From contig JBAXTD010000003.1 in assembly GCA_037130335.1 (NCBI GenBank), positions 1 to 44,849 on the forward strand: a DNA stretch of 44,849 bases, given 5' to 3'. Under the pieces are notes generated by a model, which was given only the letters and a program-made list of their open reading frames with translations, had not been told where the DNA came from and made no database searches. Of this stretch, positions 11,334 through 43,545 are shown in pieces (the first letter of the stretch is position 1; each line of letters starts with the position of its first letter). The position numbers and the translations under genes are program-made. The DNA is from a bacterium. GTDB taxonomy: Bacteria > Patescibacteriota > Minisyncoccia > Phycocordibacterales > UBA9973.

Positions 11334-11370
11334 AATTCAACTATAGTATCACAGAAATATGTACACATCA

Positions 11371-12991: not shown

Positions 12992-15259
12992 TTAATTCAA
13001 AACTGTTCTCAAAACTTCTTCGGGGACTTCTCGAACTTTTTTGGGAGAAACATCTGGTGTAGTAGCAATATCTGGTGTTTCAGCTTTTGTCTCAGTTTCT
13101 GTCTCAGTTTTTATTTCATTTTTTATTTCAGTTTTTGTATCAGTTTTTACATTCGAACTATTTCGCGCACGATTAATTGCCTCCTGCAACGCAGATACTT
13201 TTTCGGTTGAAGCATTTTTATCAAATGATTTTGTATTTGCAGTATGAGAATTATTTTCAATTGTTTTGAGAGACGACAAAGAAATAGTTTTTTTAACCTC
13301 TGCAACAGGCGTTGGAATAATTTCTGTTTTTACTTCTTGTACATTATTTGTATCAGGTTTCATTGCATTGCCCAAAGCTTCCTTGAGAATACTTTGCAAA
13401 CCTTCATGGTCTGGACCCTTGCGTTCACGGGGAGCGATGACAACTTTTCCCTTGTCAGAAAACTTAGAAAATACCGGAATTTTCGGCTCAAAGGGTTTCT
13501 GAATTGGTTTTAGTATTGGAGTTGGTGTTGATATTGGTTTTTCAAATTTTACCGGTGCTGGTTTTGGAGTTTGTGTTTGTGTTGATACTGGCGATGAAAT
13601 TTTTTCAGATACAGGTGCTACGTTTGGTTTTGTAGGTACAAATGATTTTTCGGGAGATTTTTTGAAAAACGGTTTATGCATTGTCTTTTCTTCTGAAGCA
13701 AACTCAATTCCCAACCCCGAAAGTTCCGCAAATGATTGAGCTTGCGGTTCATATGATTTTTTTTGTGAACCCTTGAGAGGTTTTAATTCACCAGATTTAA
13801 TTTTTGCAATACATTCTTTGCAGTACACTGGACGACCTTCTTCCGGTTCAAATGGCACAGTCGTTTCTTTACCACACGATGAACACACCGCTTTGAATTT
13901 TCCTTCGGTAAACGTAGTGGTTGAATTCACATTCGGACTTCCACCCATTCCACTCCATTCATTAATTTCGCGTTCCACATCTTCACGTGAACGAGCATAT
14001 AATGCGCGAGATGATTCAATAATTTCTGCTTGCACATTACTATTTTCTGGAATTTTAAATGGAGGAAGTGTACTTGCCGAAAAAGGTCGCGATGTCACGC
14101 CATCTACCATGAGCTTGAGATAAATTTTATAGTTCGGCAAATTTACCATATCAGGCGTCGTAAATTCTGGATCGAATTCTTTTTCTAAATATTCTCCATC
14201 CACCGCTCCCACACGAAACACAATCATCGTTCCGACGTTTCCAAAAATCGCATCACGCACCGTATCGGAATCTTTGGTCGAAAGTTGCGCGATGTACTGG
14301 TGTGCAAGTGTGAGATTGAGACGATATTTACGAGCCTCAGAGAGAATAGATGCGAACGAGTCAGTAACGAAGTTTTGGAATTCGTCCACATACAAATAAA
14401 AATCTTTACGGTCGTCCTCGGGAATACGCACACGTTCCATCGCAGCAAGTTGAATTTTGGTAATAAGCATTCCACCCAAAAGTGCTGAGTTATCTTCACC
14501 GATACGTCCTTTGGAAACGTTCACGATAAAAATCTTTCCTGTGTTCATCATTTCAAACAAATCAATCGTTGATTTAGATTGTCCGACAACATTACGCACA
14601 AGTGAACTTGAGAGAAACTGTCCCACTTTGTTTTGGATCGGTGCAATTGCTTCGTTACGATATTGTTCACGCCAGGCTTCAAACTCATGCACCCAAAAAG
14701 CTCGAATAACTGGATCTTTTACGTTTGCAATAATTTGTTGGCGGTAATCTTTATCGACAAGCAAACGAGGAATTCCAAGCAATGTCGAACCAGGAGTTTC
14801 CACCAATGCGAGAATTGCATTATTGAGAATGTATTCCATACGTGCACTCCACGCATTAGCCCAAATTTTTGTAAAAATTCCCATGAGACCTGATGCCACC
14901 AAATGTTTATATCGCGGATCATCGATTTGAAGCACGTTGAAACCAATATGGTAGTCCATATCAGCCGGATTAAAATATATGACATCTTTAGCGCGATGTG
15001 GAGGAATCGTGGCAAGAATCTTTTCGACCAATTCGCCGTGCGGGTCAATCACACACACGCCTTCACCATTCCAAATATTTTGCACAATCATATTTTCAAG
15101 AAGCACGGATTTACCCGTTCCAGATTTTCCAAGCACGTACATATGCTGACGTCTGTCTCTACGTTTGATACCAAAAATCTGCTCATCCTTTCGGAAATTT
15201 GTTTTTGCAAGATATGTTATGTCTCTATTAAAGTTAATCCCTTCTGGGAGAAAATCCAT
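12992..15259 (-). CDS. CPR-type VirD4/TraD-like (T4CP/HerA-FtsK superfamily) ATPase with a CxxC-x17-CxxC zinc-binding domain and low-complexity tail
   Basis: Walker A GKSGTGKS, IDPHG, Walker B YVDEFQNF, SEARKY, AHQY; CSSC...VPFEP...PVYCKEC. Confidence 0.88.
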   Translation of the reverse strand: MDFLPEGINFNRDITYLAKTNFRKDEQIFGIKRRDRRQHMYVLGKSGTGKSVLLENMIVQNIWNGEGVCVIDPHGELVEKILATIPPHRAKDVIYFNPADMDYHIGFNVLQIDDPRYKHLVASGLMGIFTKIWANAWSARMEYILNNAILALVETPGSTLLGIPRLLVDKDYRQQIIANVKDPVIRAFWVHEFEAWREQYRNEAIAPIQNKVGQFLSSSLVRNVVGQSKSTIDLFEMMNTGKIFIVNVSKGRIGEDNSALLGGMLITKIQLAAMERVRIPEDDRKDFYLYVDEFQNFVTDSFASILSEARKYRLNLTLAHQYIAQLSTKDSDTVRDAIFGNVGTMIVFRVGAVDGEYLEKEFDPEFTTPDMVNLPNYKIYLKLMVDGVTSRPFSASTLPPFKIPENSNVQAEIIESSRALYARSREDVEREINEWSGMGGSPNVNSTTTFTEGKFKAVCSSCGKETTVPFEPEEGRPVYCKECIAKIKSGELKPLKGSQKKSYEPQAQSFAELSGLGIEFASEEKTMHKPFFKKSPEKSFVPTKPNVAPVSEKISSPVSTQTQTPKPAPVKFEKPISTPTPILKPIQKPFEPKIPVFSKFSDKGKVVIAPRERKGPDHEGLQSILKEALGNAMKPDTNNVQEVKTEIIPTPVAEVKKTISLSSLKTIENNSHTANTKSFDKNASTEKVSALQEAINRARNSSNVKTDTKTEIKNEIKTETETETKAETPDIATTPDVSPKKVREVPEEVLRTVLN

Positions 15260-22148: not shown

Positions 22149-24068
22149 ATGGAACAGAAAAAACGTGTAGGAATTTGGGTACGAGTATCAACTGAATTTC
22201 AAGTTAAGGACGACAGCCCCGAACACCATGAGCAAAGAGCCAGGTATTACGCAGAGGCAAAAGGTTGGGAGGTTATAGAAGTATACCGCCTTGAAGCGAT
22301 CTCTGGAAAAACCGTCATGGAATTGCCTGAGACTAAGAAAATGCTTCGGGATATTCAAACCGGACGGATTACCGCCCTTGTATTCTCAAAGCTTGCGAGG
22401 TTAGCAAGAAACACAAAGGAACTGCTTGAATTTTCCGAACTGTTTAGAAAATCAAACGCTGACATGATTTCCTTGGCTGAGAACATTGATACAAGTTCAC
22501 CATCAGGCAGATTGTTTTTCACAATCATTGCTGCAATGGCAGAATGGGAACGAGCAGAAATTGCCGAGCGGGTTGCAGCATCGGTTCCCATACGGGCAAA
22601 AATGGGTAAACCTTTAGGAGGTGCAGCCCCTTATGGGTATCAATGGAAAGGCAAGGAATTGATTGTAAACAAGCAAGAAGCTCCGATACGGAAGTTGATG
22701 TATGAACTCTTTGCAGAACACAAAAAGAAAGGGTTGGTAGCACGGAAGCTAAACGAAATGGGACATCGGACACGGAACGGCTCTGAGTTCAGTGATACCA
22801 CCATTGGCAGATTGCTGCACGATAGCACGGCGAAAGGTGTCCGGCTTGCCAACTACACCAAAAGTTTAGGAGACGGCAAAAAGTGGGTGTTAAAACCCGA
22901 AAGTGAATGGGTTCAAATTACCTGCCCTGCCATAGTTTCTGCCGAACTATGGGACAAGTGTAATAAAATTCTCATTGAACAGGAAGAAAAGAACCACAGA
23001 CCCGCTAAATCTGTAACACAGCTTTTTTCGGGGATCCTATATTGTGGCTGCGATGGCAAAATGTATTACAACCCTCACGGAAATTCCTACCGATGCAAAA
23101 CATGCAAGAAAACCAAAATCGGAGTTGACGACATCGAAGAAATATATTTTTCACAAATGGAAATTTTCCTAATGTCTGATTCGCATTTCGATAAGTTTCT
23201 TTCAAAAGCGAAAAAGGAAATTTCGGAGAAAGAAAAATCACTTGAATCTTTTTTGAAAGACAAAAAACGAATTCAGGCAGATATGGATTTAAAAATGGAA
23301 TTGTATATGGCTGGTCAGATTCCCAAAGATCGATTCGGCAGTTACTACAATCCCCTTGACCTACAACTCCGGCAAATTGAAAATTCCATTCCCCAAATCG
23401 AAGCCGAAATTGACATGCTCAGGATAGAGGAACTAAACGGCGATGCGGTAAAGCATGAAGCAAAAACAATGTATGAAAGATGGAGTACCCTCGACAAATC
23501 CGCAAAACGCTCCTTTGTCGAAAGAATCACCAGCCGAATAACAATTGCTGGTGACGAGGTAGCGATCCGATTCCGCTACCATCCCTCCTATTTCCTAAAT
23601 TCGCAAAATACCCAACACAACTTCATACCTGCGTTGCCTTTTTTGCACGTCCAGTTATTTGCTCAAATTCCATCACAACCTATTGAAAATCTGAAACATA
23701 TCGGAGAGCATATTAAAAACCGCCGAATGCAGCTTAAATTATTCCAAACCGATATAGCAAAGATATTCAATGTTTGTGAGGATTCAATCACGGGATGGGA
23801 GAACGAAAGGAGCGCTCCACAGATTCAATATTATCCTAAACTGATTGAATTTTTGGGGTACAATCCCTTTCCAGTTGAAACGGCAACTTTGGGCGGGAGG
23901 ATTAAACAATTCAGGATTTTAAACGGGCTAAGTCAGGAGGATTTAGCTAAAAAAATGGGTGTGAACGAGAGTACAATTTTCTCATGGGAGAAAGGAGATC
24001 ATGCGCCATTTCCTAGTAAGAAAAAATTACTTGAAGAAGTATTAAATCAAAAAGAGCTTTCAAAATGA
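22149..24068 (+). CDS. Large serine recombinase LSR2 fused in frame to two XRE-family HTH domains
   Basis: WVRVST, FSKLARLARN, APYGY, zinc ribbon YCGC...RCKTC, coiled coil; then IGEHIKNRR...QTDIA...ITGWENE and LGGRIKQFR...LSQEDLA...IFSWEKG. Confidence 0.92.
   Translation: MEQKKRVGIWVRVSTEFQVKDDSPEHHEQRARYYAEAKGWEVIEVYRLEAISGKTVMELPETKKMLRDIQTGRITALVFSKLARLARNTKELLEFSELFRKSNADMISLAENIDTSSPSGRLFFTIIAAMAEWERAEIAERVAASVPIRAKMGKPLGGAAPYGYQWKGKELIVNKQEAPIRKLMYELFAEHKKKGLVARKLNEMGHRTRNGSEFSDTTIGRLLHDSTAKGVRLANYTKSLGDGKKWVLKPESEWVQITCPAIVSAELWDKCNKILIEQEEKNHRPAKSVTQLFSGILYCGCDGKMYYNPHGNSYRCKTCKKTKIGVDDIEEIYFSQMEIFLMSDSHFDKFLSKAKKEISEKEKSLESFLKDKKRIQADMDLKMELYMAGQIPKDRFGSYYNPLDLQLRQIENSIPQIEAEIDMLRIEELNGDAVKHEAKTMYERWSTLDKSAKRSFVERITSRITIAGDEVAIRFRYHPSYFLNSQNTQHNFIPALPFLHVQLFAQIPSQPIENLKHIGEHIKNRRMQLKLFQTDIAKIFNVCEDSITGWENERSAPQIQYYPKLIEFLGYNPFPVETATLGGRIKQFRILNGLSQEDLAKKMGVNESTIFSWEKGDHAPFPSKKKLLEEVLNQKELSK
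23613..23636. other. Putative unrecombined attP of LSR2, inside its own reading frame
   Basis: Imperfect inverted repeat caacaca-acttCAtacc-tgcgttg centred on CA at 23624-23625, exactly at the recombinase/HTH junction (HNF/IPALPF). Confidence 0.55.
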
Positions 24069-24111: not shown

Positions 24112-26331
24112 ATGAGAGAATACCATCTATTAGGCAGCACTAATAAGTATAATATTTTCGATGCAAAGCAGTGTCAACTAATATCTATCTTTAAGGTAGA
24201 TATTCTAGACCCATTGTTCGGACTAGAAATGACAGCAACACCTTATTTAAGAACTCAAGGAACAGGAAAAAATGCAAAACAAATCGTCATGAAAAATGTT
24301 TTGTATTCATACAATTTAGGCGATGCGATTAGGGGAAAACTTGTAAAAGACCCTTGGGTTGGTACAGAGGGAGATACTGATTTCAGTCAATTTAATTCTG
24401 ATTCAATTGAAACAGATGCTAGAAAACTACAGTTGGCAGCTTATTTTCATGAGCGAGCTAAAAATGCACTTAAAGAATATGCCCTTGAAAACAATCTTCA
24501 TGTTGTAAAACCTGTAATGTTAGTTGTCGCGAAAGATACCACTCACGCAAGGGAGTTAAGAACTCTGATTGATAGTGATAATTTTCGTGGCGGTGAATAT
24601 ATAGGAAAGGTCATTGAGGTACACACAAAATTGCGAGGAGATGAAGCGGATGAAAATATTGAAAAATTAATTTCACTTGAACAGCCTGAAAACATTGTTG
24701 AAATTGTAATTCACGTTAACATGCTCAAAGAAGGCTGGGATGTTACAAATGTATATACAATAGCACCTTTGCGTGAAGCGGCAGCAGCAATTTTAACAGA
24801 GCAAACAATAGGTCGTGGATTACGTCTACCTTATGGTGAAAGGACTGGTGTTCCATTAGTTGATAGGCTTGTGTTGGTTGCACATGAACAATTTGCAAAA
24901 GTTGTTGCGCTTGCCAAAGATTCACCTCTTATTCAAGGGCAGGTTGAAAAAATTTCATCAAGTGAAGCAAAGGAAGTAAAAGTCTTAACTGAGGTACAGC
25001 CTATAATTCTGCAAAGTGTTGCAAATGAAATAAGAAATAACCAAGTAGTAATGCAAGCTGTTGCAGAAAAAGCTACTGAAATTGTCTCAAAAAATCCATA
25101 CGCTGAGAATATGGAATCTAGCGTTTTAAAAAACTTTATTGATTCAAAGACAAATGAAATTGTAACTAGTTTAACTAAAGAAACTATAAAGAATTTATCA
25201 TTTTCTGATTTTCATGGACAACAACCAACTACTCAAACTGAATTGTCATTTGGTAGTGATACGCTTTTTGGTTCTTTTAGTAAAGAAGCAAAAGATGAAC
25301 TATCAAAGATTGCACAAAAATCAAGTGAAACTATGGAAAAGAGAAACATTTCTATTCCACGGTTAATACTCACCCCTAGTTTCGGAGAACTTTCTCTTAA
25401 TCCATTTGATTTAGATACAAGTATCATTCAATCATATACAAATGAAAAAGCGATCCTTGAGGAGCAATTACAAAATGATCGAGAAAAGGATTTGTTTGGT
25501 GATGACATTCCTGGGCGCAGACGAACTGAAGTAACAAGAATAGGTAGTTTCGGTTCACATAATAAACAAACTCCACAAAACACAATTATTGCTGCTCTCT
25601 TAGATTTTCCGCTTTTAGATTATGATGATCTGGAACAAAAACCCTTGCTTCTTAAATTAGCGGATCAAGCGGTATCTCACTATCGTAAAAAAGCAATTGA
25701 TGAAGATAATTTAGCTTTAATTGTCGAAAGTAACGCGAGGAGTATCGCCGAAGATATTCACAAACAAATATTAACTCATAAGGAATTAAAATTTGAAGGT
25801 TATTTAGAATCTGACGTTGGAGAACCAAAACCTTATTTAGAGCAATATAATATTTCATTATCTCTCGGAGAAAAATCTGTTCGACTAGAATCACAACTAA
25901 ATACGTTTAGTGCTAAATTTTTGTATGGGCAATTTCACAAAGCCTGTCATGGAATGTATCGCTTTGACTCATCCGATGAAGTCCGCTTGGCATACTTACT
26001 TGAACGTGATGAAACTGTAATAAATTGGCTTCGTCCTGCACCAAATCAATTTGAGGGTTTATATTGGCGTGACACAGAAGGAGAAGCACATCATAGGTAT
26101 GAACCAGATTTTGTTGTTGAGTTAGATGATGAAATTGTAATGGTTGAGGTAAAACCTGAAGAGGAAATTAGAACCTCAAGTGTACAAGCAAAAAAACAAA
26201 CAGCTCTTAAATACTGTGAAATAGTTAATAGAAATTTAGGTAAGTTTGGGATTGTAAAAAAATGGAAATATATTATTGTTCCTACAGAAAGAATTACAGT
26301 TACCTCTACTATTTTAAATTTATTAAAATAA
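24112..26331 (+). pseudogene. Type III restriction Res-like SF2 helicase-nuclease, N-terminally truncated
   Basis: Retains motif III (MTATP), VNMLKEGWDV, EQTIGRGLRL and PD-(D/E)xK (YEPDFVVE...VEVK); lacks Walker A and the DExH box; no mod gene adjacent. Confidence 0.75.
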
Positions 26332-27129: not shown

Positions 27130-29691
27130 ATGGCTGTGAGCACTGCAACAAAACGAAATATTGTTGACTTCCTATGGGAATGGGGGGAATCAAATGGAGA
27201 ATGGGGTAAACTATTGATCTCAAAAATAATCGGCACAGAAACAAATCTGACGATTGAAGACAAAAAGGAGGTCTTTGATTATTTCTTGCAGTCAATTAAA
27301 CTTAAATCCGGATTGCCTGACTTGGCAATTAAAAAACCTGTCTATTCCCCTTCCACCAAAAAGATCGATATCATTTCACTTTCTGAAGTAAAAGGTGTAA
27401 ATAAATTGGCACTGGATCAGACCATCACATTCGCTGATAACATAACTGTGATCTACGGCGAAAATGGCTCTGGTAAAACTGGATACGGTCGGATCTTGAA
27501 GGCCTTAGGCTATAGCTATGAACTTTACAACAATATTTTGTGCGATATTACTAAACCTCAAGAACCGCAAACGGCTACAATTAAATATAGAGTTGATGGT
27601 GTTGATGGAGAATTTAACTGGGATGGCAAGGCAAAAAATAGTTCGTTAGAAAATATTTCAATCTTCAATAACAATTGCGTTCAAATATCTCTTGCTGATC
27701 GAGGGTTACTTGTCTCACCAATCGGATTTCATTTATTTAATCTTGTCTCTGATGAATTAGGATATTTAGCAAGACTGTGGCAAGAAACTATTGATAAATA
27801 CCCAACGCTGCTCCTTTGGGCAACCAACCTTCACCCTGGTACACTACAAGAAAATTTCATCTCTAATTTAAAGGGGAATTCAAGCCTGCCTAGACTGACA
27901 GAAATTTCAACTTTTGACGATGGTCATAAAACGAGCTTAGCCGATTGCGAGTTAGAGTTAAAGAACCTGAACAAGGCTTTACTTGAAAAAGAGTTGGCAA
28001 ATTTCAGAACCCAACTTGGTGAAATAGATGTAATCCTTGGCAAAGTCCTGAAAGCACAGAAAGCATTGAATGAAAATACTTGGGTAAACTTAGTCACACT
28101 CAATAAACAGTTACATGACTTAGAAGCCAAAACAAAAGTTGGGTTAAAGGAGATTGCTGAAACCAATAACATTGACTTTTATTTATCCAAAGAGTTCCAA
28201 GCCTTTATAAAAGCAGCAGATGAATACATTAAAATATTAAACAAGGACGATTACCCGAAAGGAGAATCTGAAACTTGTGTGTATTGCAAACAAGAATTGA
28301 AAACTGAGAATTCCATAGCGCTTCTAAGGAGCTACCGGAAGTTGTTAAATGACAACACGCAAGAGCTAATTAAAAAAGCTAAAGATTCAAAGACATCCAT
28401 TATTCAACTCATAGCTGCTATCGAAGTCCCATTAATTTTTCACCAAGATACATTTGGACGTGATTCGGACGGAAAAATTGTCCAACCCGAGGGCATTAGT
28501 AAATATAATAAACTTCTTGCCAGTTGGAAAGCGATTGTTGACAAGGGAGAGTTTGATGAAATAAAATTCGATCTTGATTATACTGAATACATTACCTTCT
28601 TAGAGTCAAGAAAAACAAAAACCGAGGAGGCGATCAAGCTAAAAATCCATACAATTGATAATATTTCTATCAAAGAAAAAGAGCTCATTGCGAAAATTAA
28701 TGAGTTAAAAGATAGAGAATTTCTTTCAACAAGAACCGAGGATGTAAAAAAGGCTATAGCAAACAAAGTAATAGTTTCAACTCTTTTGAATCATAAATCT
28801 AGTTTCTCGACAAACACCATAAGCAGGAAAACTACTGAAGCTAGAGAGGAGTTGGTACAAACAGAATTTAATAAGTATTTTACTGAAGAACTAAAAGCTC
28901 TTAGGAAGTCAAATATTAAAATTGAATTGACCTTCGGAACTTCGAAAGGAAATTCACGACTTCAACAGCGAATAAACACATCATATATTCTCTCCGACAT
29001 TTTGAGCGAAGGAGAACAAAAAGCAATCGCTCTGGCAGAATTTCTTACCGAATTACAGCTTGATAAATCAAAATCCCCCGTTATTTTTGACGACCCCGTA
29101 AATAGTTTAGACCATCATATCATAGAAGACGTTTCAAGAAGGTTACTCACATTATCGAGGTCAAGGCAGGTAATAATTTTCACTCACAGCATTCTACTTT
29201 TTAATAGTATAATGCACAATTGCAAACTAGCGACTTACAAAGACCTACAGAAAATTCTCTATGATATACGATCGGAATACGGACTGACTGGGGTAATATC
29301 TATTACTGATGCCGATATAGATCAAGTCAAAAAACCAGTAGTTAAAATCCGAACGTTATTGAATAATTTGCCGAAAGGACGAAGAGAGAATGATGTTGCA
29401 GCAGAAGGTTTCGGTGAGCTACGTGCAGCCATTGAATTATTGGTAGAGCATCACATTTTCAGAGGTACAGTAAAACGCTATCAGCCTAATATTGCGCTGA
29501 CAAACTTTATTAAAGTCGATGGTTTATTGGTAAATAAAAACAAAGATAAACTCAATGAGATTTACGAAAGATGTTGCAGATATACAAATGCACATAGTAA
29601 TCCTGAAGAAGTAATTACTCAACCGACTGTTGCAGAACTAAAACTTGATTTTGATGAATTTGAGACTATCCATAAACAGTTTCCAATATAA
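27130..29691 (+). CDS. RloC-like Rad50/ABC ATPase with zinc hook and C-terminal HEPN-like domain (putative anti-phage)
   Basis: Walker A GENGSGKT, coiled coil with CVYC, signature LSEGE, Walker B/D-loop IFDDPVNSLD, H-switch IFTH, C-terminal RYTNAH (Rx4H). Confidence 0.75.
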   Translation: MAVSTATKRNIVDFLWEWGESNGEWGKLLISKIIGTETNLTIEDKKEVFDYFLQSIKLKSGLPDLAIKKPVYSPSTKKIDIISLSEVKGVNKLALDQTITFADNITVIYGENGSGKTGYGRILKALGYSYELYNNILCDITKPQEPQTATIKYRVDGVDGEFNWDGKAKNSSLENISIFNNNCVQISLADRGLLVSPIGFHLFNLVSDELGYLARLWQETIDKYPTLLLWATNLHPGTLQENFISNLKGNSSLPRLTEISTFDDGHKTSLADCELELKNLNKALLEKELANFRTQLGEIDVILGKVLKAQKALNENTWVNLVTLNKQLHDLEAKTKVGLKEIAETNNIDFYLSKEFQAFIKAADEYIKILNKDDYPKGESETCVYCKQELKTENSIALLRSYRKLLNDNTQELIKKAKDSKTSIIQLIAAIEVPLIFHQDTFGRDSDGKIVQPEGISKYNKLLASWKAIVDKGEFDEIKFDLDYTEYITFLESRKTKTEEAIKLKIHTIDNISIKEKELIAKINELKDREFLSTRTEDVKKAIANKVIVSTLLNHKSSFSTNTISRKTTEAREELVQTEFNKYFTEELKALRKSNIKIELTFGTSKGNSRLQQRINTSYILSDILSEGEQKAIALAEFLTELQLDKSKSPVIFDDPVNSLDHHIIEDVSRRLLTLSRSRQVIIFTHSILLFNSIMHNCKLATYKDLQKILYDIRSEYGLTGVISITDADIDQVKKPVVKIRTLLNNLPKGRRENDVAAEGFGELRAAIELLVEHHIFRGTVKRYQPNIALTNFIKVDGLLVNKNKDKLNEIYERCCRYTNAHSNPEEVITQPTVAELKLDFDEFETIHKQFPI

Positions 29692-35448: not shown

Positions 35449-38400
35449 ATGAATCAAACCGTTTCAAAGGAATTAACGTCCCGTTTCTATCAATGGGAAA
35501 TACGGGGACGTGGCAGACACGTCTTTGACTTCCCCGTTGAACTTGAACCGGAATTTTATCCTTTCCTTGGACACTATATTTCTACGCCCCAGGTCGCGGA
35601 CGATGGCATTAGCAAATCACTTTTCAACAAAGCTGTTGGCCTATTCAAACCAAAGCAAAAAGTTGAGATTGATGAATCAACAACAATACCCACGGTATCT
35701 GGATATGAATTCGAATGTGATGAAGAAATATCGGTGTTCGAAATCGTATTACCTAAAGGAGAAAAATTTCAGATGCGGGACATGGAGCAGTTATTAATCA
35801 TGCTCTCATACACTCACTTCCCCATCAGTTTTGAAATCATTGGAACCGAAACTTCGATCAATATTCAATTCGCTTGCCGTGAGACAGACGAGGAACATAT
35901 GTTCAGTCAGGTACACGCATACTTTCATTCTGCCATCATTACGAGGCAAGATAAAGATGCAGAAATTCTCACAAGTGGTTTACAAACTTGTGTCATTGAT
36001 TTTGGTTTAGCAGAAGAATTTATGCGCCCGATCTGTATGGCGGAAGAAGTCGGTCAAGACCCGTTCATCGGGATTTTTGCCAGCCTTGAACACCTCGCAA
36101 AAGATGAACAAGGTGTAATACAAATACTTTTCAAAGGTGCAGTGAATCCGTGGAGTACCAGTATTATTAAATCAGTCACAGACAATAAAGGAGGTTCATT
36201 TTTTTCAAATGCGCCTGAAATGGTAAAGCTTGCCCAGGACAAAATTTCTTCCCCTTTGTACGCAGTTAGTATTAAAGTCGCTGGACAATCAACAACCAAC
36301 AGACGTGCGGTAGAAATTGTAAAAAATATCGGTAATGTATTAGTTCTGTTGACCAGTTCCAAGGGAAATAAACTACAGATTCTTACGCAAGAGGGATATG
36401 ATATTGATGAATTGCTTAGTGATATTTACTTACGAGAATCGCACCGGCTGGGAATGATATTAAACACCCGAGAACTTGCTACGTTAGTACACTTCCCTAC
36501 ACCGGGAATATTTTCTTCAAAGATTATCCGACATACAAAGAAAACCAAAGCCGCACCAGATAGCACACACGGACAAAAATTCATACTTGGGTTAAACACG
36601 TATCATGGAGTACACAGACTTGTGAGCATTCCCGAAAGTTTGCGCCTGCGGCACACGCATATCATCGGCGCAACAGGCACCGGCAAATCTACCTTGTTGC
36701 TCTACATGATCGCGCAGGACATGAAGCAAAGCAACGGGTTAGCAGTATTAGACCCGCACGGAGATTTGATTGAATCCATCCTTGCGCATGTGCCTAAGGA
36801 ACGCATCAATGATGTTATCTTAATCGACCCAGCAGATGCAGATTTTCCGGTTGGGTTCAATATTCTCTCTGCTCATTCAGAAATTGAGAAAGATATATTG
36901 TCCTCTGATTTAGTGGCAGCATTCAAAAGGTTAAGCACCAGTTGGGGCGACCAAATGAACAGTGTACTTTCAAATGCAATCCTTGCGTTTTTGGAAAGCC
37001 CCCAGGGTGGCACGCTTGTTGACCTTCGCAGGTTTTTAGTTGAGACCTCTTTTAGAAACGCATATCTCAAAACAGTTGCTGACCCGCATGTGGTATACTA
37101 TTGGCAGCATGAATATCCGTTACTGAAATCAAGTTCAATCGGCTCAATCCTTACACGATTAGACACGTTCCTACGCCCGAAACTAATACGCAACATGGTT
37201 GCGCAAAAGAAGGGGCTTGATTTCGAAAATATCCTTGATACCCGAAAGATATTGTTAGTGAAATTATCGCAAGGCTTAATTGGTGCGGAAAACAGTTTCT
37301 TGCTTGGTACATTTTTCGTTTCCAAAATGTACCAGGCTGCGATGGCACGACAAGCCAAAAGTAAAGCCGACCGCAGTAACTTCTATCTCTACATTGATGA
37401 GTTTCAGAATTTCATAACCCCGTCAATGTCGCATATCTTAAGTGGTGCGAGAAAATATCACTTGGGCTTGATATTGGCACATCAAGACATGCAGCAGTTG
37501 CAAAAGTATGACAGCGAACTTGCCAGCTCTGTTACCGTCAATGCCGGAACAAGGATATGTTTTAGGTTGGGTGATACCGATGCAAAGCGCTTTGCGGGTG
37601 GCTTCTCATACTTCGATGCAGAGGATTTGGAGAACTTGAAAATTGGCGAGGCTATCATGCGAATTGAGCAGCCTAATTTCGATTTCAATCTTTCAACACT
37701 ACCTGTACAGGAGTTTGATGAGTATGAGGCAGATGTTACAGCAAAGTTGGTTATTGCAACATCACGGGAGAAGTGTGGGACACCGAGGGCCGAGGTAGAA
37801 AAAAGTATAGAGAATCTCAGTCATTTGCCAAAAGAGCGGGAGCCAGAACTTTTGCCTATTAGGATTGTGCCGGAAGCACCGCCACCAGGGCCTGAACCAA
37901 TACCCGCGCCGATCAAACCTGTTGAGATACAAAGAGAATCATTATATGAACCTGTGCTAGTTGTAGCAGCACAGGAAGTGCCGCCGACAGCACTTACTCC
38001 CGAACCTCCAGCAGAGCCATTTAAACCTGTTGAAGTACCAAGAAAAGTAGCGCCCGGTAAAAAGGCAAAAACAGAACACAGATATTTACAGACGTTTATT
38101 AAACGAATGGCTGAATCAAGAGGTTACAAAGCCATTATTGAGGAAAGTACACCGGATGGCAAAGGTAGAGTTGACGTGAGCCTTGAAAGAAATGGCAAAA
38201 AGATTGCGATTGAAATATCTGTTACAACCGGTGATGAATGGGAGGCGCATAACGTGCAAAAATGTTTAGCTGCTGGATATGACGAAGTGATTGTTTGTAG
38301 TAGCGAAATTAAAAATTTGCAGCGTATCAGAGAGCAACTTGAAATCAAACTAACTAAAAAGCAGCTTGCTAAAGTGTTGACTTTTGAACCTCAGGAAGTC

Positions 38401-38499
38401 ATTCAATATTTTGACAAACAGATTATGCAAGAAAGCACTAAGGAAAAGTTGGTGAAAGGATACAGGGTGAAAGTTGAGTTTGATAGCCCAACTGATTAA
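35449..38499 (+). CDS. VirD4/TraD-like ATPase 'A' with a long N-terminal domain, Pro-rich linker and C-terminal PD-(D/E)xK-like domain
   Basis: GATGTGKST, LDPHG, YIDEFQNF, SGARKY, AHQ; C-terminal EH..LQ..IK...GY...EE...GRVDV...IAIEIS. Confidence 0.87.
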   Translation: MNQTVSKELTSRFYQWEIRGRGRHVFDFPVELEPEFYPFLGHYISTPQVADDGISKSLFNKAVGLFKPKQKVEIDESTTIPTVSGYEFECDEEISVFEIVLPKGEKFQMRDMEQLLIMLSYTHFPISFEIIGTETSINIQFACRETDEEHMFSQVHAYFHSAIITRQDKDAEILTSGLQTCVIDFGLAEEFMRPICMAEEVGQDPFIGIFASLEHLAKDEQGVIQILFKGAVNPWSTSIIKSVTDNKGGSFFSNAPEMVKLAQDKISSPLYAVSIKVAGQSTTNRRAVEIVKNIGNVLVLLTSSKGNKLQILTQEGYDIDELLSDIYLRESHRLGMILNTRELATLVHFPTPGIFSSKIIRHTKKTKAAPDSTHGQKFILGLNTYHGVHRLVSIPESLRLRHTHIIGATGTGKSTLLLYMIAQDMKQSNGLAVLDPHGDLIESILAHVPKERINDVILIDPADADFPVGFNILSAHSEIEKDILSSDLVAAFKRLSTSWGDQMNSVLSNAILAFLESPQGGTLVDLRRFLVETSFRNAYLKTVADPHVVYYWQHEYPLLKSSSIGSILTRLDTFLRPKLIRNMVAQKKGLDFENILDTRKILLVKLSQGLIGAENSFLLGTFFVSKMYQAAMARQAKSKADRSNFYLYIDEFQNFITPSMSHILSGARKYHLGLILAHQDMQQLQKYDSELASSVTVNAGTRICFRLGDTDAKRFAGGFSYFDAEDLENLKIGEAIMRIEQPNFDFNLSTLPVQEFDEYEADVTAKLVIATSREKCGTPRAEVEKSIENLSHLPKEREPELLPIRIVPEAPPPGPEPIPAPIKPVEIQRESLYEPVLVVAAQEVPPTALTPEPPAEPFKPVEVPRKVAPGKKAKTEHRYLQTFIKRMAESRGYKAIIEESTPDGKGRVDVSLERNGKKIAIEISVTTGDEWEAHNVQKCLAAGYDEVIVCSSEIKNLQRIREQLEIKLTKKQLAKVLTFEPQEVIQYFDKQIMQESTKEKLVKGYRVKVEFDSPTD

Positions 38500-38563
38500 G
38501 GATGTGCTGAGATAATCGAAAATTGCAAAAACGCCTCCGAAGTCAAAGCAGAAGGAAAAATAG

Positions 38564-39043
38564 TTAATGAGAAGTAACTGGAATTACTGGCATACTAGCT
38601 AATAATTCTTTGCTAGTTTTTAAATGAGCTTCTTGTTCTTTCAATTGATTTTCGCCCGTTAAGATTAGTTCTTTCATTTGTTCATCGAGAGATTTTGTGT
38701 TGGTTGTATTTGATATTCTTCCTGTTGGTATTTTTGTCGGTTCTGTCTTGTCTAATTTATCCGGTTGAAGTTTCTCTTCCACGGCATCTAAATTATTATC
38801 CTCGGAATTTACTATAGGATTAGGCTGATAATAACCAACTGGGGAGGAGGGTATTTCTTGCACGGGGGTAGCGGTAATTCCTGGGCTTGTATTGCCCTGG
38901 TATATTATATAAATATCTCTACCGGTAATTCCCATAAAGGCAGCGACACTAAAAAGGATGGCGGCAACACCAAAAATAATAGTTACACGCAAATTCTTTT
39001 TTGCAATCAGAGTATTCTCTTCGTCTTTATATTTTGTATTCAT
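38564..39043 (-). CDS. Hypothetical single-TM protein (cassette 1)
   Basis: One TM, Pro/Thr-rich linker, C-terminal coiled coil; likely start MNTKY. Confidence 0.65.
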   Translation of the reverse strand: MNTKYKDEENTLIAKKNLRVTIIFGVAAILFSVAAFMGITGRDIYIIYQGNTSPGITATPVQEIPSSPVGYYQPNPIVNSEDNNLDAVEEKLQPDKLDKTEPTKIPTGRISNTTNTKSLDEQMKELILTGENQLKEQEAHLKTSKELLASMPVIPVTSH

Positions 39044-39245
39044 ATAGCAATAATTGAAAAACAAAATTAGGATTCCGATTTCACATTGCTTTTAAAAACA
39101 TAAAATATATTTGGATTAAGCCGTAGCGGAATAATTGATTGTAGTGGTAACAATGTAATTCGGTTTACCAAAGACCCATAATTGTTTGCGCATAAAAAAA
39201 CCTTCTTAATTGCCATAAGCAACAAAGAAGGTCTCGATACCGCAA

Positions 39246-39407
39246 TCATTTTTTTGAAACGACACGGTGAATGAAATACCCGAAGGCCATTACTGTTGGG
39301 AATGTACCAAAAAGGGCAGTAAAAATGTGATGCACCATAATTTGGAAAATTATACCAGTCGCGCCGAGTGCTACTATTAGTAGCAAACCGAGTGTTTTTA
39401 AGGACAT
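39246..39407 (-). CDS. Small 2-TM protein, 53 aa (cassette 1)
   Basis: MSLKTLGLLLIVALG...; directly downstream of a perfect sigma70 promoter. Confidence 0.65.
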   Translation of the reverse strand: MSLKTLGLLLIVALGATGIIFQIMVHHIFTALFGTFPTVMAFGYFIHRVVSKK

Positions 39408-39425
39408 ATATTTAGATTTGCGTAT

Positions 39426-39454
39426 ATTATATCGCCCCAAACCCACTTTGTCAA
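39426..39454 (-). promoter_or_regulatory. Perfect consensus sigma70 promoter
   Basis: TTGACA-17-TATAAT on the minus strand. Confidence 0.85.
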
Positions 39455-39469
39455 GCACATATAATGACC

Positions 39470-39585
39470 TTATATCTCCTCACTTTTCGCACTAATTGCT
39501 TGCGATGTAGTCCCATCTATCATAAGCTTTAAATGCATTATGCGATCCTTGCAGGATTCACCGTATCAATCGCCTCAAACACCAG
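39470..39585 (-). pseudogene. Degenerate copy of the 3' end of VirD4-like gene B (41494-42681)
   Basis: Reads VFEAIDTVNPAR, then a frameshift, then MHLKLMIDGTTSQAISAKSEEI*, versus VFEAIDLVNLARFSMYLKIMIDGASSAPFSAYS; atcaatcgcctcaaa is identical at 39565 and 41599. Confidence 0.85.
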
Positions 39586-39821
39586 TGAGGAGTGGGAGGC
39601 GCATAACGTGTAAATATTTAGCTGTCGGATATGACGAAGTGATTGTTTGTAGTAGCGAAATCAACCATTTGCAGCGTACTAGAGAGCAGCTTGAAACCAA
39701 ACTTTAAAAAGTGTTGACCCTTGAACCTCAAGAAGTAATTCGGTTTTTTGATAAACAGATTGTACAGAAAAGCAGTAAGTGAAAGGTTGTTAAAGGGTAC
39801 AGAGCGAAAATTGAGTTTGAT
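39581..39821 (+). pseudogene. Degenerate copy of the 3' end of VirD4-like gene A (38227-38484)
   Basis: Shared blocks tgggaggcgcataacgtg, ggatatgacgaagtgattgtttgtagtagcgaaat, atttgcagcgta, ttgaacctca, ttgagtttgat, with indels and stops. Confidence 0.92.
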
Positions 39822-39882
39822 CCATGAACAAATTAAGAGACTGCTCTGTTTGTATTCGAATACACAATCAGAGTTAAACAAA

Positions 39883-40704
39883 TTAATGATCCACATTTAT
39901 TACAGAACAACCATTATTTTTAATATGTAATGAATTACAGCAGTGGACAAGCTTATTCTTATGATAAATATCGAAAGAATAGTTCCCAGCTTTTAAAATA
40001 AAAGAAGTGTAGTTTGAGCGTTGTAGTGGATACGAACAGGGATTATCAACCGAGTACATTTCATTCTTAAAGGAGAATTTAACTTTGTAATGTTTATAGC
40101 GGGAATAAAATTTTACACCCCCATATCCTTCGGTAAATTTTTCTCCCATAAAAATCTCTTTTTTTATAGAATACAACTCTACTGCCTTTCCACCTACGCC
40201 CGAGTAGATGTTGTCAGTTCCAGTACGCTGTCTCACTGCGTAGATATCTCTTAATAAATCCGCATTATTGTTTGTGGATGAGCTCGTGTTGCCATTTGAA
40301 CTTTTCATTTTTTCACTTTTGTAACCAAAAGTGTCTTTCAGTACTACTTTTATATTTTTATTGGCATTTTCTTTTTCAATCGCTAACAATTCATTTCTTT
40401 TTAATCTATCATTTTCAATTTTAAGCCGTTCCTTTTCGGTATCAACCTTATTATTTACAGAGATATTGTTCTCTGTATCTTTTAAAGATTTACTGAAGAC
40501 TGCAGGTAAAACAATTTCGGGCTTTTTATTCGACTTTAGGGACGACATTTTTAATATGATAGTATCTCTTTTCTTTTGTTCGTTATTATAGATAAGGTTT
40601 GATTTTTTCTTATCATAATAGTCTTCGACAACAATTATCGTCCCGATAATGGTGCAAATCGCAGCAACTATAATGATACCTTCTTTGATCTTACTTTCGG
40701 CCAT
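39883..40704 (-). CDS. Hypothetical protein with N-terminal TM and coiled coil (cassette 2)
   Basis: 273 aa; IIIVAAICTIIGTIIVV; Cys-containing beta-rich C-terminus. Confidence 0.7.
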   Translation of the reverse strand: MAESKIKEGIIIVAAICTIIGTIIVVEDYYDKKKSNLIYNNEQKKRDTIILKMSSLKSNKKPEIVLPAVFSKSLKDTENNISVNNKVDTEKERLKIENDRLKRNELLAIEKENANKNIKVVLKDTFGYKSEKMKSSNGNTSSSTNNNADLLRDIYAVRQRTGTDNIYSGVGGKAVELYSIKKEIFMGEKFTEGYGGVKFYSRYKHYKVKFSFKNEMYSVDNPCSYPLQRSNYTSFILKAGNYSFDIYHKNKLVHCCNSLHIKNNGCSVINVDH

Positions 40705-40765
40705 AGATGGTAAAATTGAATACGCTTTGCAATGTAAAACAGATTAACAAGTATAAATAACTAAT

Positions 40766-40794
40766 TTGCAAAATAATAATGCAATTGATATGAT
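40766..40794 (+). promoter_or_regulatory. Sigma70-type, apparently leaderless promoter
   Basis: TTGCAA-17-TATGAT, 6 nt before GTG 40801. Confidence 0.6.
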
Positions 40795-40800
40795 AGTTCT

Positions 40801-41136
40801 GTGGAAAAATTTAATTCCCAACGTAATTTAGAAGCAGGTAACAAAAGCATAGATGCTCACAATTCTTTCTTTTCGAAGGAAAATGTTACAAAGTTCTTTG
40901 GCAATACCTTGTTTGGCGCAGGCACCATTTATCTTTCAGCAGGAATTTACGAATTTCTGTCGGGACATAAAATTTCACATTTGACGGAAAGTTTTAAAGA
41001 TCATATTCCTAATGCAATCAATACAGCAATTGAAATTGCAGGTATTGTTCCATTTTTCCTTGTCTCGGCAGGAAGTATGGGTTTAATGTATTCAGGCCAG
41101 AAAATTGAGAAGCTTGGGAAAACGAAGAATAAATAA
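40801..41136 (+). CDS. Small 2-TM hypothetical protein (CPR-style)
   Basis: GTG start, two hydrophobic segments. Confidence 0.65.
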   Translation: MEKFNSQRNLEAGNKSIDAHNSFFSKENVTKFFGNTLFGAGTIYLSAGIYEFLSGHKISHLTESFKDHIPNAINTAIEIAGIVPFFLVSAGSMGLMYSGQKIEKLGKTKNK

Positions 41137-41137
41137 C

Positions 41138-41497
41138 ATGGACATTCTTACCGATATTTTTGAAATATTTAAGTTCGATGATGCACAAAAAAAGAAAGCT
41201 TTTGCTGATTTAGACACGCTCATTAAAGCCAAAATTACAAATGATTTAGTTTCGCAGTTGCCCGTAAATACTATTCAGGAAATTCAACTATTTGAGAATT
41301 TTAATTCAAATGAAACACAAGAAAAGATTGCAATAATACTCCAGCAACATTTTTCGAGTGAAAAAATTAAAGATATGCAACAAGCTGCGATTGGATATGT
41401 TGTCATGGAGTACCTTGCCTATATGTATGGAGAGCAAACAGCAGAACAGCAAGTACAGATAACTAATGTCCTCAAAAAGTATGGAGTGCATACTTAA
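41138..41497 (+). CDS. Small helical hypothetical protein (resembles CPR DUF5663-like proteins)
   Basis: MDILTDIFEIFKFDDAQKKKAFADLDTLIKAKI..., 1 nt after the previous stop; the family resemblance is from memory. Confidence 0.65.
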   Translation: MDILTDIFEIFKFDDAQKKKAFADLDTLIKAKITNDLVSQLPVNTIQEIQLFENFNSNETQEKIAIILQQHFSSEKIKDMQQAAIGYVVMEYLAYMYGEQTAEQQVQITNVLKKYGVHT

Positions 41498-42681
41498 GAA
41501 GACGCGTCATTTGAAATTGAATAGGCACTAAACGGTGCCGAACTTGCCCCATCGATCATTATCTTCAAATACATCGAAAACCTAGCAAGATTAACAAGAT
41601 CAATCGCCTCAAATACCGGATAAAATTCTTTAGCCAAAATCTCGGCATCAGTAGCACCAACCCTAAAGGAAATGATAGTACCACAGTTACCCAAGATTGC
41701 CGCCCGAATCTTCTCGTGCAACTGGTCTAAAAACTGGTTTGCCATAAAGACCCCAAGCCCGAATTTGCGTGCTTCTGAAAGCATATCAACAAAGCTTTGG
41801 GTAGCGAAGGTTTGACTTTCATCTATATATAAGAAAAATGGAACTCTTAAATGTTCTGGTTGCTTTGCCCGATGCAAAGCAGACAGTTGAATTGTAGTGA
41901 CAAGCATACTGCCTAACAGTGTACAGGCATCCTCACCTATTTTACCTTTACTAAAATTGCAGATTAATATTTTACTGCAATCTAACACCTGCTGCATTCG
42001 AAAACTGGTTGTCGTTTGCCCGACAACATTTCTAATCGGTATGCTGGTTAAAAATAATCCGGTCTTGTTTAAAATCGGCGCAATCGCCTCCGATCGCAAA
42101 GTCGGTGAATACTTCAAAAATTCATTCTGCCAAAAGGCAATCGTGGCTTCGTTCTTAACGTGTGCTAATATCTTGTCTCTATGCAACGTATCAGTAAGTA
42201 AGGGTTGAATATCTAACAATGTCGCATCAGGATATTCAAGCAGTGTGAGCAATGAGAACCGTAAAATATATTCTAATCTTGGGCCCCAGGAATCCCCCCA
42301 AATCTTTTTGAACACAGACACTAAACCGGATGCAACCAAGTGATGATAATTTGAGTGTATATTATGCAAAGGATTGAATGCGATGCAATGTTTCAAGTCC
42401 GCAGGATCAAAATATATCAAGTCACTTTTTCGGTGCTCAGGAATATGTTGCAAGAGACTCTCGGCAACATCACCGTGAGGGTCAATGACAGCCAAACCCT
42501 TCCCATTTTTAATATCCTGAATGGCCAAGGATTGTAAAAGCGTACTCTTACCAACCCCGGTTTTACCAATGCAAAAGATATGCGCCAATCGGTCTTTATC
42601 CTTAATGCCAAACCGCTGGTTTGTGCTTCTGTAGTTCGTTATTCCAATGTAGGTGATCGAATTTTTATCCTCATAAGCCAT
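41494..42681 (-). CDS. Compact VirD4/TraD-like ATPase 'B', core domain only, visibly related to the host paralogues
   Basis: ITYIGITNYR...FGIK..DR..H, GKTGVGKST, IDPHG, WGPRLEYILR, YIDESQTF, SEARKF, MYLKIMIDG..S.PFSA. Confidence 0.88.
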   Translation of the reverse strand: MAYEDKNSITYIGITNYRSTNQRFGIKDKDRLAHIFCIGKTGVGKSTLLQSLAIQDIKNGKGLAVIDPHGDVAESLLQHIPEHRKSDLIYFDPADLKHCIAFNPLHNIHSNYHHLVASGLVSVFKKIWGDSWGPRLEYILRFSLLTLLEYPDATLLDIQPLLTDTLHRDKILAHVKNEATIAFWQNEFLKYSPTLRSEAIAPILNKTGLFLTSIPIRNVVGQTTTSFRMQQVLDCSKILICNFSKGKIGEDACTLLGSMLVTTIQLSALHRAKQPEHLRVPFFLYIDESQTFATQSFVDMLSEARKFGLGVFMANQFLDQLHEKIRAAILGNCGTIISFRVGATDAEILAKEFYPVFEAIDLVNLARFSMYLKIMIDGASSAPFSAYSISNDASS

Positions 42682-42746
42682 ACTGAAATGATATGACTTT
42701 TTGAAGTAGAGAAATAGCCGGATTCATTTACCAGTTATGGAAAACA

Positions 42747-42774
42747 AAAACAGGGGTTGTTAGTCCCCTGTTTT
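42747..42774 (-). terminator. Terminator after the RuvC-like gene
   Basis: aaaacagggg-8-cccctgtttt with a T tail on the minus strand. Confidence 0.75.
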
Positions 42775-42775
42775 C

Positions 42776-43249
42776 TTAAACCAATTCAGTACATGCAATG
42801 GCTTCAAATAATTTCACATAGTACGAAATATGCTTTCTCCGTTCCTTGGCGTATAGATCGGCTAATTGCCGGTGTAGTGGATATTTGCGTATAATGGATT
42901 GAATAAGTGATTGCTTGTTGTGAACTGCATTTTCTTTATTGTTCCGTATAAGCATTGAGATTGTGCAAACAATAATTCTAATCCCTAATTTTTCCCCAAG
43001 CAGTAAAATTTCATTCGTCAGATCATTAATGCTTTGAGAGCAATGAAAAGGTTTTGGAGTTTTTACCACAATCTTTTGTATGTCATACCGATTTATGGTT
43101 TCAATCACCGATTCAATCATTTCTCTTTGCTTTTCACTATTCCAAGCTCCATAAAAAGTCCGTACTCTAAAATCACTCAATTCCCCATCATACTTTACCG
43201 CAATTCCCATAAGCCTTGTACCGAGACTAATTCCCAGAATATTTTGCAT
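42776..43249 (-). CDS. RuvC/YqgF-like RNase H-fold protein, first catalytic Asp apparently replaced
   Basis: ILGISLGTRLMGIAV...IQKIVVK...K..L...FEAIA; likely start MQNIL at 43249. Confidence 0.6.
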   Translation of the reverse strand: MQNILGISLGTRLMGIAVKYDGELSDFRVRTFYGAWNSEKQREMIESVIETINRYDIQKIVVKTPKPFHCSQSINDLTNEILLLGEKLGIRIIVCTISMLIRNNKENAVHNKQSLIQSIIRKYPLHRQLADLYAKERRKHISYYVKLFEAIACTELV

Positions 43250-43442
43250 GGAGTTGTATGAGACGGTTATAGTAACCAGCACGATTTCTGATATTTGGTT
43301 TTGAGATTACGTAATTCAGTTTTTCCCGAAGAAATGATTCTGAATATTTTTGAGCACAAGCAATATGCCAGTCTATTGATTTCCTGTCATTGAGAATATC
43401 AGCAATCTCATACGCCAGTTTAATTTCTCTTGATTGTTCCAT
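43227..43442 (-). CDS. Small helical protein resembling the C-terminal domain of replication-initiator-like proteins
   Basis: LAYEIADILNDRKSIDWHIACAQKYSE...IRNRAGYYNRLI; overlaps the RuvC-like start; function inferred. Confidence 0.6.
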   Translation of the reverse strand: MEQSREIKLAYEIADILNDRKSIDWHIACAQKYSESFLREKLNYVISKPNIRNRAGYYNRLIQLHAKYSGN

Positions 43443-43446
43443 AGAT

Positions 43447-43545
43447 TTACTACATATGGTAAATAAGTGCACAGTTATCCACACCTAAAAACCGTACGTT
43501 CGTTATTTTATTTTTTAATAAAACGTGACGTTATCGTTCGTTTGG
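43447..43545. promoter_or_regulatory. Palindromic operator, DnaA box and CGTT-repeat/AT-rich tract (candidate origin)
   Basis: ttactacatatggtaa 43447-43462; TTATCCACA 43475-43483; cgtacgttcgtt-AT tract-aacgtgacgttatcgttcgtt. Confidence 0.5.

Follow-up and report, generated by a model that had tools for sequence, protein, structure and literature searches.

How does the interval between two conserved genes of an integrative element come to hold two sets of accessory genes, one behind the other, with the decayed ends of both flanking genes fused between them? The question is raised by a stretch of 44,849 nucleotides from a bacterium of the Patescibacteriota (assembly GCA_037130335.1, contig JBAXTD010000003.1; hereafter the window), which is the whole of contig C23 of a 754-kb genome in 32 contigs. 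The window contains an integrative element whose gene set includes large serine recombinases, ArdC, two TraG-like ATPases, and a RuvC-like gene. The two ATPase genes, here called A and B, are convergent, and a preliminary description made from the sequence alone had read the interval between them as A-> cargo 1 <-B' | A'-> cargo 2 <-B, where B' and A' are decayed 3' ends of B and A. This layout and its coordinates were borne out by blastn and by alignments (Table 1). In our interpretation, to which we assign a probability of roughly 0.7, the structure results from one illegitimate, microhomology-mediated join combined with one homologous exchange between two alleles of the same slot.

Measured from stop codon to stop codon, the A-B interval is 2994 bp long and consists, in order, of cargo 1, a non-coding stretch of ~370 nt (39470-39836), and cargo 2. 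With 39400-39900 as blastn query against the window, the scar stretch itself being masked, 39581-39821 matched 38227-38484 at 79.1% over 258 columns (E 4.3e-61). In a global alignment, A' could be followed to the stop, which aligns at 39834-39836; the two copies differ by 44 substitutions and by 17 gap positions, one deletion of 12 nt among the latter, and A' contains four in-frame stops. For B', the same search aligned 39489-39583 with 41525-41617 at 71.6% over 95 nt (E 6.8e-8; next window match, E 0.78), and a DNA profile of 39 B 3' ends, run over 1.27 Mb, matched B' at 39483-39583 (E 6.9e-10). The significance of the B' similarity, on which the preliminary description had staked its reading, is thus established by both searches. 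The B' translation retains VFEAID.VN.AR and LK.MIDG..S...SA.S across one frameshift and ends in a TTA stop at 39470-39472.

The joint lies, as had been proposed, at a short sequence shared by the parents, which were deduced from the present-day copies of A and B. Both intact genes contain ACCGG at the corresponding positions (38227-38231 in A and 41615-41619 in B), and the scar has ACCAG, one base off. For random pairs of A and B positions, the probability of sharing at least 5 nt is 0.006. Both remnants retain their own stop and have lost their 5' part, and their cut ends are fused head to head, which is why we regard the joint as the b|a product of an unequal exchange. Besides A' and B', no DNA repeats were found in the region, and its edges carry no att- or attC-like, inverted, or direct repeats. 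The longest exact repeat between A and A' is a 35-nt block (38275-38309 on the plus strand, identical to 39627-39661), at which contigs built with k=31 break. It stands amid ~17% divergence elsewhere, where ~0.1 such runs would be expected by chance, and may be a sign that the remnant has undergone gene conversion with the live tail.

That exact block is also the one place at which an assembler could have mis-joined two strain variants of the slot, since the k=31 contigs of sequencing run X1 break at 38280-38304 and 39632-39656 and the de Bruijn graph is therefore ambiguous there. Such an artefact is nevertheless extremely improbable. An independently built 1377-nt contig of X1 equals 38280-39656 with 0 differences and bridges 39581, so that the joint lies inside one contig, 75 nt from the nearest break, and the depth of X1 is even (57-66) across A, cargo 1, cargo 2, and B. 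Moreover, the stops and indels of A' and B' could not arise by mis-joining live alleles, and the alternative path would break gene A. X1 is possibly the source sample, and the contig therefore counts as a second assembly rather than a second sample. A run from a second study, X2, contains 40206-40405 and 40528-40854, both within cargo 2, at 100% identity; it has only small pieces (0.14 of sampled words), leaves the joint uncovered, and is uninformative on it.

Table 1. Positions of the genes, remnants, and other features discussed in the text (window coordinates unless a contig is named; aa, amino acids; ORF, open reading frame)
Feature	Position	Strand	Basis or remark
Integrative element, ~24.5 kb	20259-44849		Serine recombinases at tRNA-Ala
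TraG/TrwB-like ATPase gene	12992-15259		
TraG/TrwB-like ATPase gene	16384-17862		
Gene A, intact, 1016 aa (TraG/TrwB-like ATPase gene)	35449-38499	+	Pfam TrwB_AAD_bind (PF10412), 47.5 bits vs cut-off 20.5
Segment of A duplicated as A'	38227-38499	+	ACCGG at its start is the A-side counterpart of the joint
Cargo 1, gene 1, 166 aa from TTG or 159 aa from first ATG at 39043; N-terminal membrane helix	38564-39064	-	No family match
Cargo 1, 60-aa ORF	39067-39249	-	Coding doubtful
Cargo 1, small membrane protein; ORF of 70 aa from GTG, likely product 53 aa from ATG at 39407	39246-39458	-	
Promoter-like site TTGACA-17-TATAAT, perfect (12/12)	39426-39454	-	Faces cargo 1, directly past B' stop
B', decayed 3' end of a B allele, ~38 codons, one frameshift	39470-39585	-	5' side missing
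Joint, ACCAG	39581-39585	.	B homology left, A homology right
A', decayed copy of the last 273 nt (91 codons) of A	39581-39836	+	blastn, global alignment; 5' side missing
Cargo 2, 273 aa, N-terminal membrane helix	39883-40704	-	
Cargo 2, 111-aa membrane protein	40801-41136	+	Divergent from the 273-aa gene
Cargo 2, 130-aa ORF	41105-41497	+	Stop overlaps B stop (convergent)
Gene B, intact, 395 aa (TraG/TrwB-type ATPase only)	41494-42681	-	Pfam TrwB_AAD_bind (PF10412), 28.2 bits vs cut-off 20.5
TraG/TrwB-like ATPase gene	contig C1, 50793-52406		

The two cargo sets are unrelated, as had been claimed: no similarity between their proteins was detected at E 1e-3. Cargo 1 comprises three minus-strand ORFs (38564-39458) and cargo 2 one minus-strand and two plus-strand ORFs (39883-41497), and both have a GC content (0.36 and 0.325, respectively) below that of A (0.425) and B (0.408). 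For the small membrane protein of cargo 1, the 53-aa start is the likely one because the promoter-like site lies inside the longer 70-aa frame. No recombinase or transposase domain was found in 38500-41493 by scans against Pfam, PADLOC, PHROGs, and NCBIfam, and the six cargo ORFs gave nothing above noise in these databases; functional hints at that level (CapR, E 0.005; holin, E 0.0046; SIR2, E 0.008) were set aside. Among 5.8 billion proteins the 273-aa cargo protein had no relative but itself, viral contigs searched with it and with A yielded none, and the window cargo proteins had no match in 80 metagenome loci. These 80 are the loci retained from 240 stretches that match a profile of the A C-terminus.

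Comparison with relatives indicates that this interval is an allelic slot. In 13 relatives (L033, L034, L035, L036, L039, L044, L047, L048, L052, L055, L059, L066, and L079), the order o173-A -> slot <- B is retained without exception, and in nine of them (L033, L034, L035, L036, L039, L048, L052, L059, and L079) o168, o85, and a helix-turn-helix (HTH) gene, HTH101, follow on the far side of B. Of the remaining four, L044 and L047 reach the contig end within B and L055 and L066 show no match beyond it; ArdC is found upstream in some relatives. Protein identity among the syntenic relatives is 57-71% for A and 77-88% for B. Between these conserved flanks the stop-to-stop slots measure 56, 310, 555, 1902, 1905, 1928, 1970, 2465, 3339, 3692, 4916, 5970, and 6358 bp, and in an all-versus-all blastp of slot ORFs, matches between loci were confined to L041, L042, and L043, the window having none. 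The preliminary description had suspected a variable slot, and a range of 56-6358 bp with no shared cargo confirms it. Thus, the A-B interval is a hypervariable, core-flanked hotspot in which this integrative element family, encountered mostly in Bacteroidota, carries its cargo.

The contents of the slot in relatives are diverse, the SMODS, radical SAM, deaminase, HD, and GNAT sets listed next being of defense type. Among 41 slot proteins, Pfam recognized SMODS together with TIR-STING (cyclic-oligonucleotide-based anti-phage signaling system, CBASS), radical SAM, cytidine deaminase with RibD_C, HD with an M78 peptidase, GNAT with a C39-like peptidase, DUF1643, and a Ddl/Mur-ligase/enolase set, as well as two kinds of mobile genes, a Mutator-family transposase and a nested large serine recombinase. 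The latter lies in the slot of L066 (2359-7054) beside the CBASS pair and has a C-terminal HTH, the same architecture as that of window 22149-24068. L037 (13868-17262) has a truncated B whose neighbors are a small resolvase and a Mutator-family transposase. L066 and L037 show that slots of relatives also grow by other routes. At the opposite extreme are the empty or nearly empty slots of L034 (6154-6209, 56 bp) and L039 (12977-13286, 310 bp), the latter with a clear hairpin terminator past the A stop.

With unrelated cargo sets in a slot that is allelic across the family, the structure is most simply explained by two steps, one illegitimate join at the shared 5 nt and one ordinary homologous exchange within a conserved flank. 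An A allele and a B allele would both have been cut at their ACCGG (...ACCGG in B, ACCGG... in A) and their 3' parts linked, and ordinary homologous recombination, in A or else in B and the right arm, would have finished the exchange. This would yield A (intact)-cargo 1-B'|A'-cargo 2-B (intact), in which the displaced tails would no longer be under selection and would decay. Two sibling elements resident in one cell would arrive at this arrangement by an unequal crossover. Homology that could serve as an anchor is present beside the joint, A' having 79% DNA identity to A, and A and B are conserved in the syntenic relatives. The preliminary description had also suggested an integrase-independent way of accumulating cassettes. 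This stands insofar as the cargo holds no recombinase and the account needs none, but it describes a known kind of recombination accident, not a dedicated mechanism.

The same topology would be produced without any foreign DNA if the stretch bounded by the two ACCGG sites, one in A and one in B, had been tandemly duplicated in place, by microhomology-mediated slippage or unequal sister exchange, with subsequent decay of one copy of each tail and later replacement of the cargo of one unit. A microhomology at a b|a joint is expected of such an event as well, and A' is nearest to the resident A (79%, as against at most 71% for any other allele). The differences between A and A' at the three codon positions (12, 11, and 21 of 85, 85, and 86) match neutral decay of A' combined with synonymous change in A. 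They do not separate a duplicated copy from an imported allele, and this codon-position test was set aside, both origins fitting it. Several observations nevertheless make duplication in place unlikely. Neither the two cargo sets nor their intergenic edges retain any resemblance to each other, and a perfect direct repeat of ~3 kb would be quickly lost by homologous recombination. In identity to B', the resident B (71.6% over 95 nt) does not exceed foreign alleles (L034, 71.6% over 102 nt; L047, 80% over 55 nt). Differences at first and second codon positions amount to 20/76 in B' and 23/170 in A', which is uneven for a single event, albeit a weakly constrained B tail could explain it.

A further difference between B' and B is the promoter-like site directly past the B' stop. 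Within 90 nt past the B stop, sites that face into the slot and match at least 11 of 12 consensus positions occur at five of 15 B ends (B' of the window, L039, L047, L055, and L079), as against a null expectation of 0.0024 per 99-nt segment. No such site was found past the intact B of the window, where a convergent cargo gene overlaps B. At all five of these ends the adjoining cargo lies on the strand of B, and B' and L039 have a longer string in common, TATATGTGCTTGACAA. The main promoters of Bacteroidota differ from the sigma-70 consensus, so that a consensus site is odd for that phylum. From its sequence and position, the site may be a fixed expression signal for incoming cargo. Its presence past B' and not past B, together with the fact that B' is no closer to the resident B, leads us to favor recombination between different alleles over a local duplication.

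If stacking of this kind were more than a single accident, displaced gene tails should be found elsewhere, and the preliminary description had suggested comparing homologous elements for scars at the same coordinate. None was found in 13 syntenic relatives, 401 genomes, or 80 metagenome loci. When the A end and B end of 14 relatives with convergent layout were each compared with the relative's own slot, the 13 syntenic ones gave no scar, one of them, L034, having a slot too short for comparison. Among 401 genomes from the family to which G101 (Flavipsychrobacter) belongs, 22 carried matches to the A C-terminal profile, 26 in all; none of these was a stand-alone decayed A tail, whereas A' was recovered as a control in the window's own genome (E 2e-23, four stops). 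In the 80 metagenome loci no second A C-terminal match was seen besides that of L079, which was rejected as a frameshift in a live gene. Two B candidates were also set aside: the 5'-truncated B pseudogene of L037, which with a transposase and resolvase beside it represents a different event, and a partial B match near the contig end of L062, for which the data are incomplete.

At other coordinates, displaced tails do occur. A more sensitive DNA profile, built from 92 distinct A ends, was run over 149 sequences totalling 1.27 Mb (the window and 148 loci). In two distant relatives, L111 and L106, it revealed another A tail, downstream of A and on the same strand, in each case behind a single defense-type gene. 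In L111, A (5508-8510) is followed by a SIR2-like gene of 831 aa and then by a remnant at 11267-11449 covering approximately the last 62 codons, with two frameshifts. The block behind this remnant directly follows A (~220 nt away) in L120, and L120 can therefore be regarded as the empty site for L111. In L106, A (76-2880) is followed by a gene of NB-ARC/Schlafen type (STAND NTPase) of 862 aa, a small ORF, and a remnant of ~45 codons, which is also supported by a protein profile (E 0.002). Both remnants are in places nearer to foreign alleles than to the resident tail. Counting the window, three loci have a displaced A tail, out of 52 distinct loci whose sequence extends 3.5 kb or more beyond A; relative to distinct A ends, the figure is three of 103. 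As to whether the scar is a one-off or recurrent, the answer is divided: the double B'|A' scar occurs only in the window, but L111 and L106 show displaced A tails at other coordinates. Gain of cargo with an A-tail scar left behind thus recurs in the family, although not at one site.

The positions of these remnants also bear on insertion by a site-specific recombinase. In such a scenario, a small cassette would have inserted at the 3' end of A (or B), bringing along a replacement gene end in the manner of phage-like elements that integrate at gene ends, and its recombinase would since have been lost. An intact gene with a diverged partial 3' copy beyond the insert is the classical signature of this process, as with e14 in icd, and the element family does use serine recombinases, one of them nested in the L066 slot. 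The three A-tail remnants, however, start ~273 nt (window), ~186 nt (L111), and ~135 nt (L106) before the stop, and this variation in position argues that no fixed site was used. In addition, neither cargo set contains a recombinase, no inverted or direct repeats mark the edges, and a site-specific element would have no reason to bring in the ends of both neighboring genes, as the inserted unit would here. We thus consider site-specific insertion very unlikely.

Recombination between two slot alleles is in our view the best explanation of the locus, and several points weigh against it. The parental alleles (A-cargo 1-intact B, and A-cargo 2-B) were not found, and the cargo of the window is without relatives, so that the origin from two different alleles is only inferred, as are the anchoring flank and the route of entry (transformation, co-residence, or tandem copies). 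The allele nearest to A' is that of the resident A, the codon-position pattern fits duplication in place followed by neutral decay equally well, and the scar reads ACCAG, not ACCGG. Since the double scar is unique, habitual stacking of cargo at this locus is unsupported. Moreover, the event may have taken place in an earlier host, in which case the competence genes of the present genome carry little weight. These genes (comEC, dprA, and recA) make transformation a permitted route, no more than that, and exchange between co-resident elements would be equally possible. A test for a hybrid element, in which the closest relatives of the left and right arms were compared, gave identities that were mosaic throughout, with no clear break.

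One could speculate further that recombination anchored in A is the normal, integrase-independent way of loading this hotspot. The nuclease-like A tail would then provide the landing homology, the promoter at the B end would express new arrivals as Pc does in integrons, and stacked slots would be intermediates that can collapse via A/A' or B/B'. We regard this extension as rather doubtful. If it were true, bacteria of the candidate phyla radiation (CPR), with their tiny genomes and DNA uptake, could sample the defense genes of other phyla.

The landing tail invoked here belongs to a gene of unusual composition. Gene A comprises an A-specific N-terminal region, an ATPase domain (aa 392-712), a Pro-rich linker, and a C-terminal domain of ~150 aa, and it can be aligned over its full length with 10 orthologues. 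The structural model of the C-terminal domain (pLDDT, predicted local distance difference test, 81) resembles restriction-endonuclease-like nucleases: in PDB, Foldseek matched it at E <=1e-3 to R2 retrotransposon proteins and to the Can2 nuclease (E 3e-4 to 1e-3, TMq 0.35-0.52), and more weakly to R.BspD6I, Hjc, and other nucleases. A sequence search of PDB with the profile of this domain (best E 0.019) was set aside in favor of the fold search. Within the domain (38032-38496), a D (GRVDV) and E.S (EISVT) are kept in 11 of 11 aligned orthologues. To judge from the model, A would be an unusual fusion of a TraG-like ATPase with a nuclease-like domain.

The preliminary description called A and B VirD4-like. 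This holds for the P-loop ATPase domain of TrwB/TraG type, which in both genes scores above the Pfam threshold, but not for membership of a coupling-protein family: the best NCBIfam coupling-protein scores for A and B were 50 and 58 bits, far below cut-offs of 250-650. No relaxase or VirB4 was seen among the element ORFs scanned. On these two grounds, A and B are classed by sequence as ATPases of the TraG/HerA/FtsK kind, with a role as coupling proteins not established.

The distribution of A reaches beyond the lineage of its present host. A matches at E <=1e-20 were obtained in 98 of 100 genome relatives, almost all of them to the ATPase core only and hence chromosomal paralogues; full-length orthologues were present only in G066 (63%) and G053 (46%). 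In contigs from one genome per species, A was found at 11 loci with 47-67% identity, 10 of them in records titled Bacteroidetes, Chitinophagaceae, Flavipsychrobacter, or Mucilaginibacter and one in Candidatus Taylorbacteria. With the Bacteroidota records L033-L043, identities are 57-67% for A, 77-88% for B, and up to 78% for ArdC. Because the closest relatives of the element genes are in Bacteroidota and A occurs in only two of 100 relatives, the sequences suggest one element family common to Bacteroidota and tiny-genome CPR bacteria. The window contig itself carries housekeeping genes and ATPase paralogues typical of a tiny-genome lineage.

Other features of the element and its genome deserve mention. 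There is no second copy of the element in the genome, the sole match being 53 nt on contig C1. A full-length match to the candidate defense family PDC-S06 (E 0, 1158 bits) lies within the element at 27130-29691, and a 739-aa element protein (24112-26331) combines a type III restriction-helicase-like part with a TnsA-like nuclease end. Five TraG/TrwB-like ATPase genes are found in the 754-kb genome, four of them on the window contig, and two chromosomal ones flank riboflavin synthase genes. Matches to such ATPases, mostly to the core only, occur in 99 of 101 genomes, the window's own counted. In run X1, contig depth rises from ~60 to ~124 to the right of 42734, in the region of the RuvC-like gene (42734-43500), and an adapter-like loose end lies at 42734. 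Probably the X1 sample contains a second element that shares the right arm past 42734; the genome bin has no second copy.

How does the process that we propose compare with known systems? Joints of tandem duplications at short repeats likewise take the form b|a with a few shared bases, but here the interiors of the two repeat units are unrelated. Integrons and other site-specific cassette systems have a recombinase and boundary sites that are absent here (38500-41493), and the insertions of the present family are not at one coordinate; the conserved outward promoter at the B end is similar to Pc in position only.

A closer parallel, from transformable bacteria, is homology-facilitated illegitimate recombination (HFIR), which the consulted part of PMC6382021 describes as RecA-dependent, with a homologous anchor on one side and a join at a microhomology of 3-10 bp on the other; the primary studies summarized there are those of de Vries & Wackernagel 2002, Prudhomme et al. 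2002, and Meier & Wackernagel 2003. The present locus is alike in combining an anchor with a microhomology join, in needing no dedicated recombinase, and in a net gain of foreign DNA beside the anchor, here with 5 nt and conserved genes as anchors. It differs in that HFIR, as presented in that part, was defined experimentally by RecA, uptake of single-stranded DNA, and a measured frequency, whereas here only the product is seen, on a mobile element for which co-residence is possible.

Sequential displacement has been described for effector-immunity modules of type VI secretion (T6SS), where, according to the consulted part of Kirchberger et al. 2017 (PMC5361080), it builds immunity arrays and orphaned 3' ends of Rhs and contact-dependent inhibition (CDI) genes without an integrase, with HFIR as the proposed mechanism. 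There, too, new modules appear beside a conserved upstream gene, and old modules and gene ends are pushed downstream and kept. Unlike those chromosomal toxin-immunity loci with one conserved flank, the slot described here lies between two convergent conserved genes of an integrative element, and the back-to-back fusion of remnants from either flank fixes both end points of the event.

The P2 and P4 hotspots resemble the slot in having conserved flanks, fast turnover of unrelated defense cargo, and small core-gene pseudogene remnants (Ash in P4) read as traces of recombination. A 2026 study of these hotspots (PMC13586616), in the part consulted, leaves the choice between homologous exchange and illegitimate recombination open. 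The present family is a different one, found in Bacteroidota and CPR bacteria and equipped with serine recombinases and TraG-like ATPases. It also has slots of only 56 and 310 bp, whereas empty slots are, in the same part of that study, nearly absent from the P2 and P4 hotspots.

In summary, the process is already known as HFIR or sequential displacement, and the value of the locus lies not in a new principle but in a clean example and a new hotspot. What drives the fast turnover of defense and accessory genes in core-flanked hotspots is still argued. Here, the fused remnants of both flanks allow both end points of one gain event to be read to the base, and the locus introduces an apparently widespread element family with a rich hotspot.

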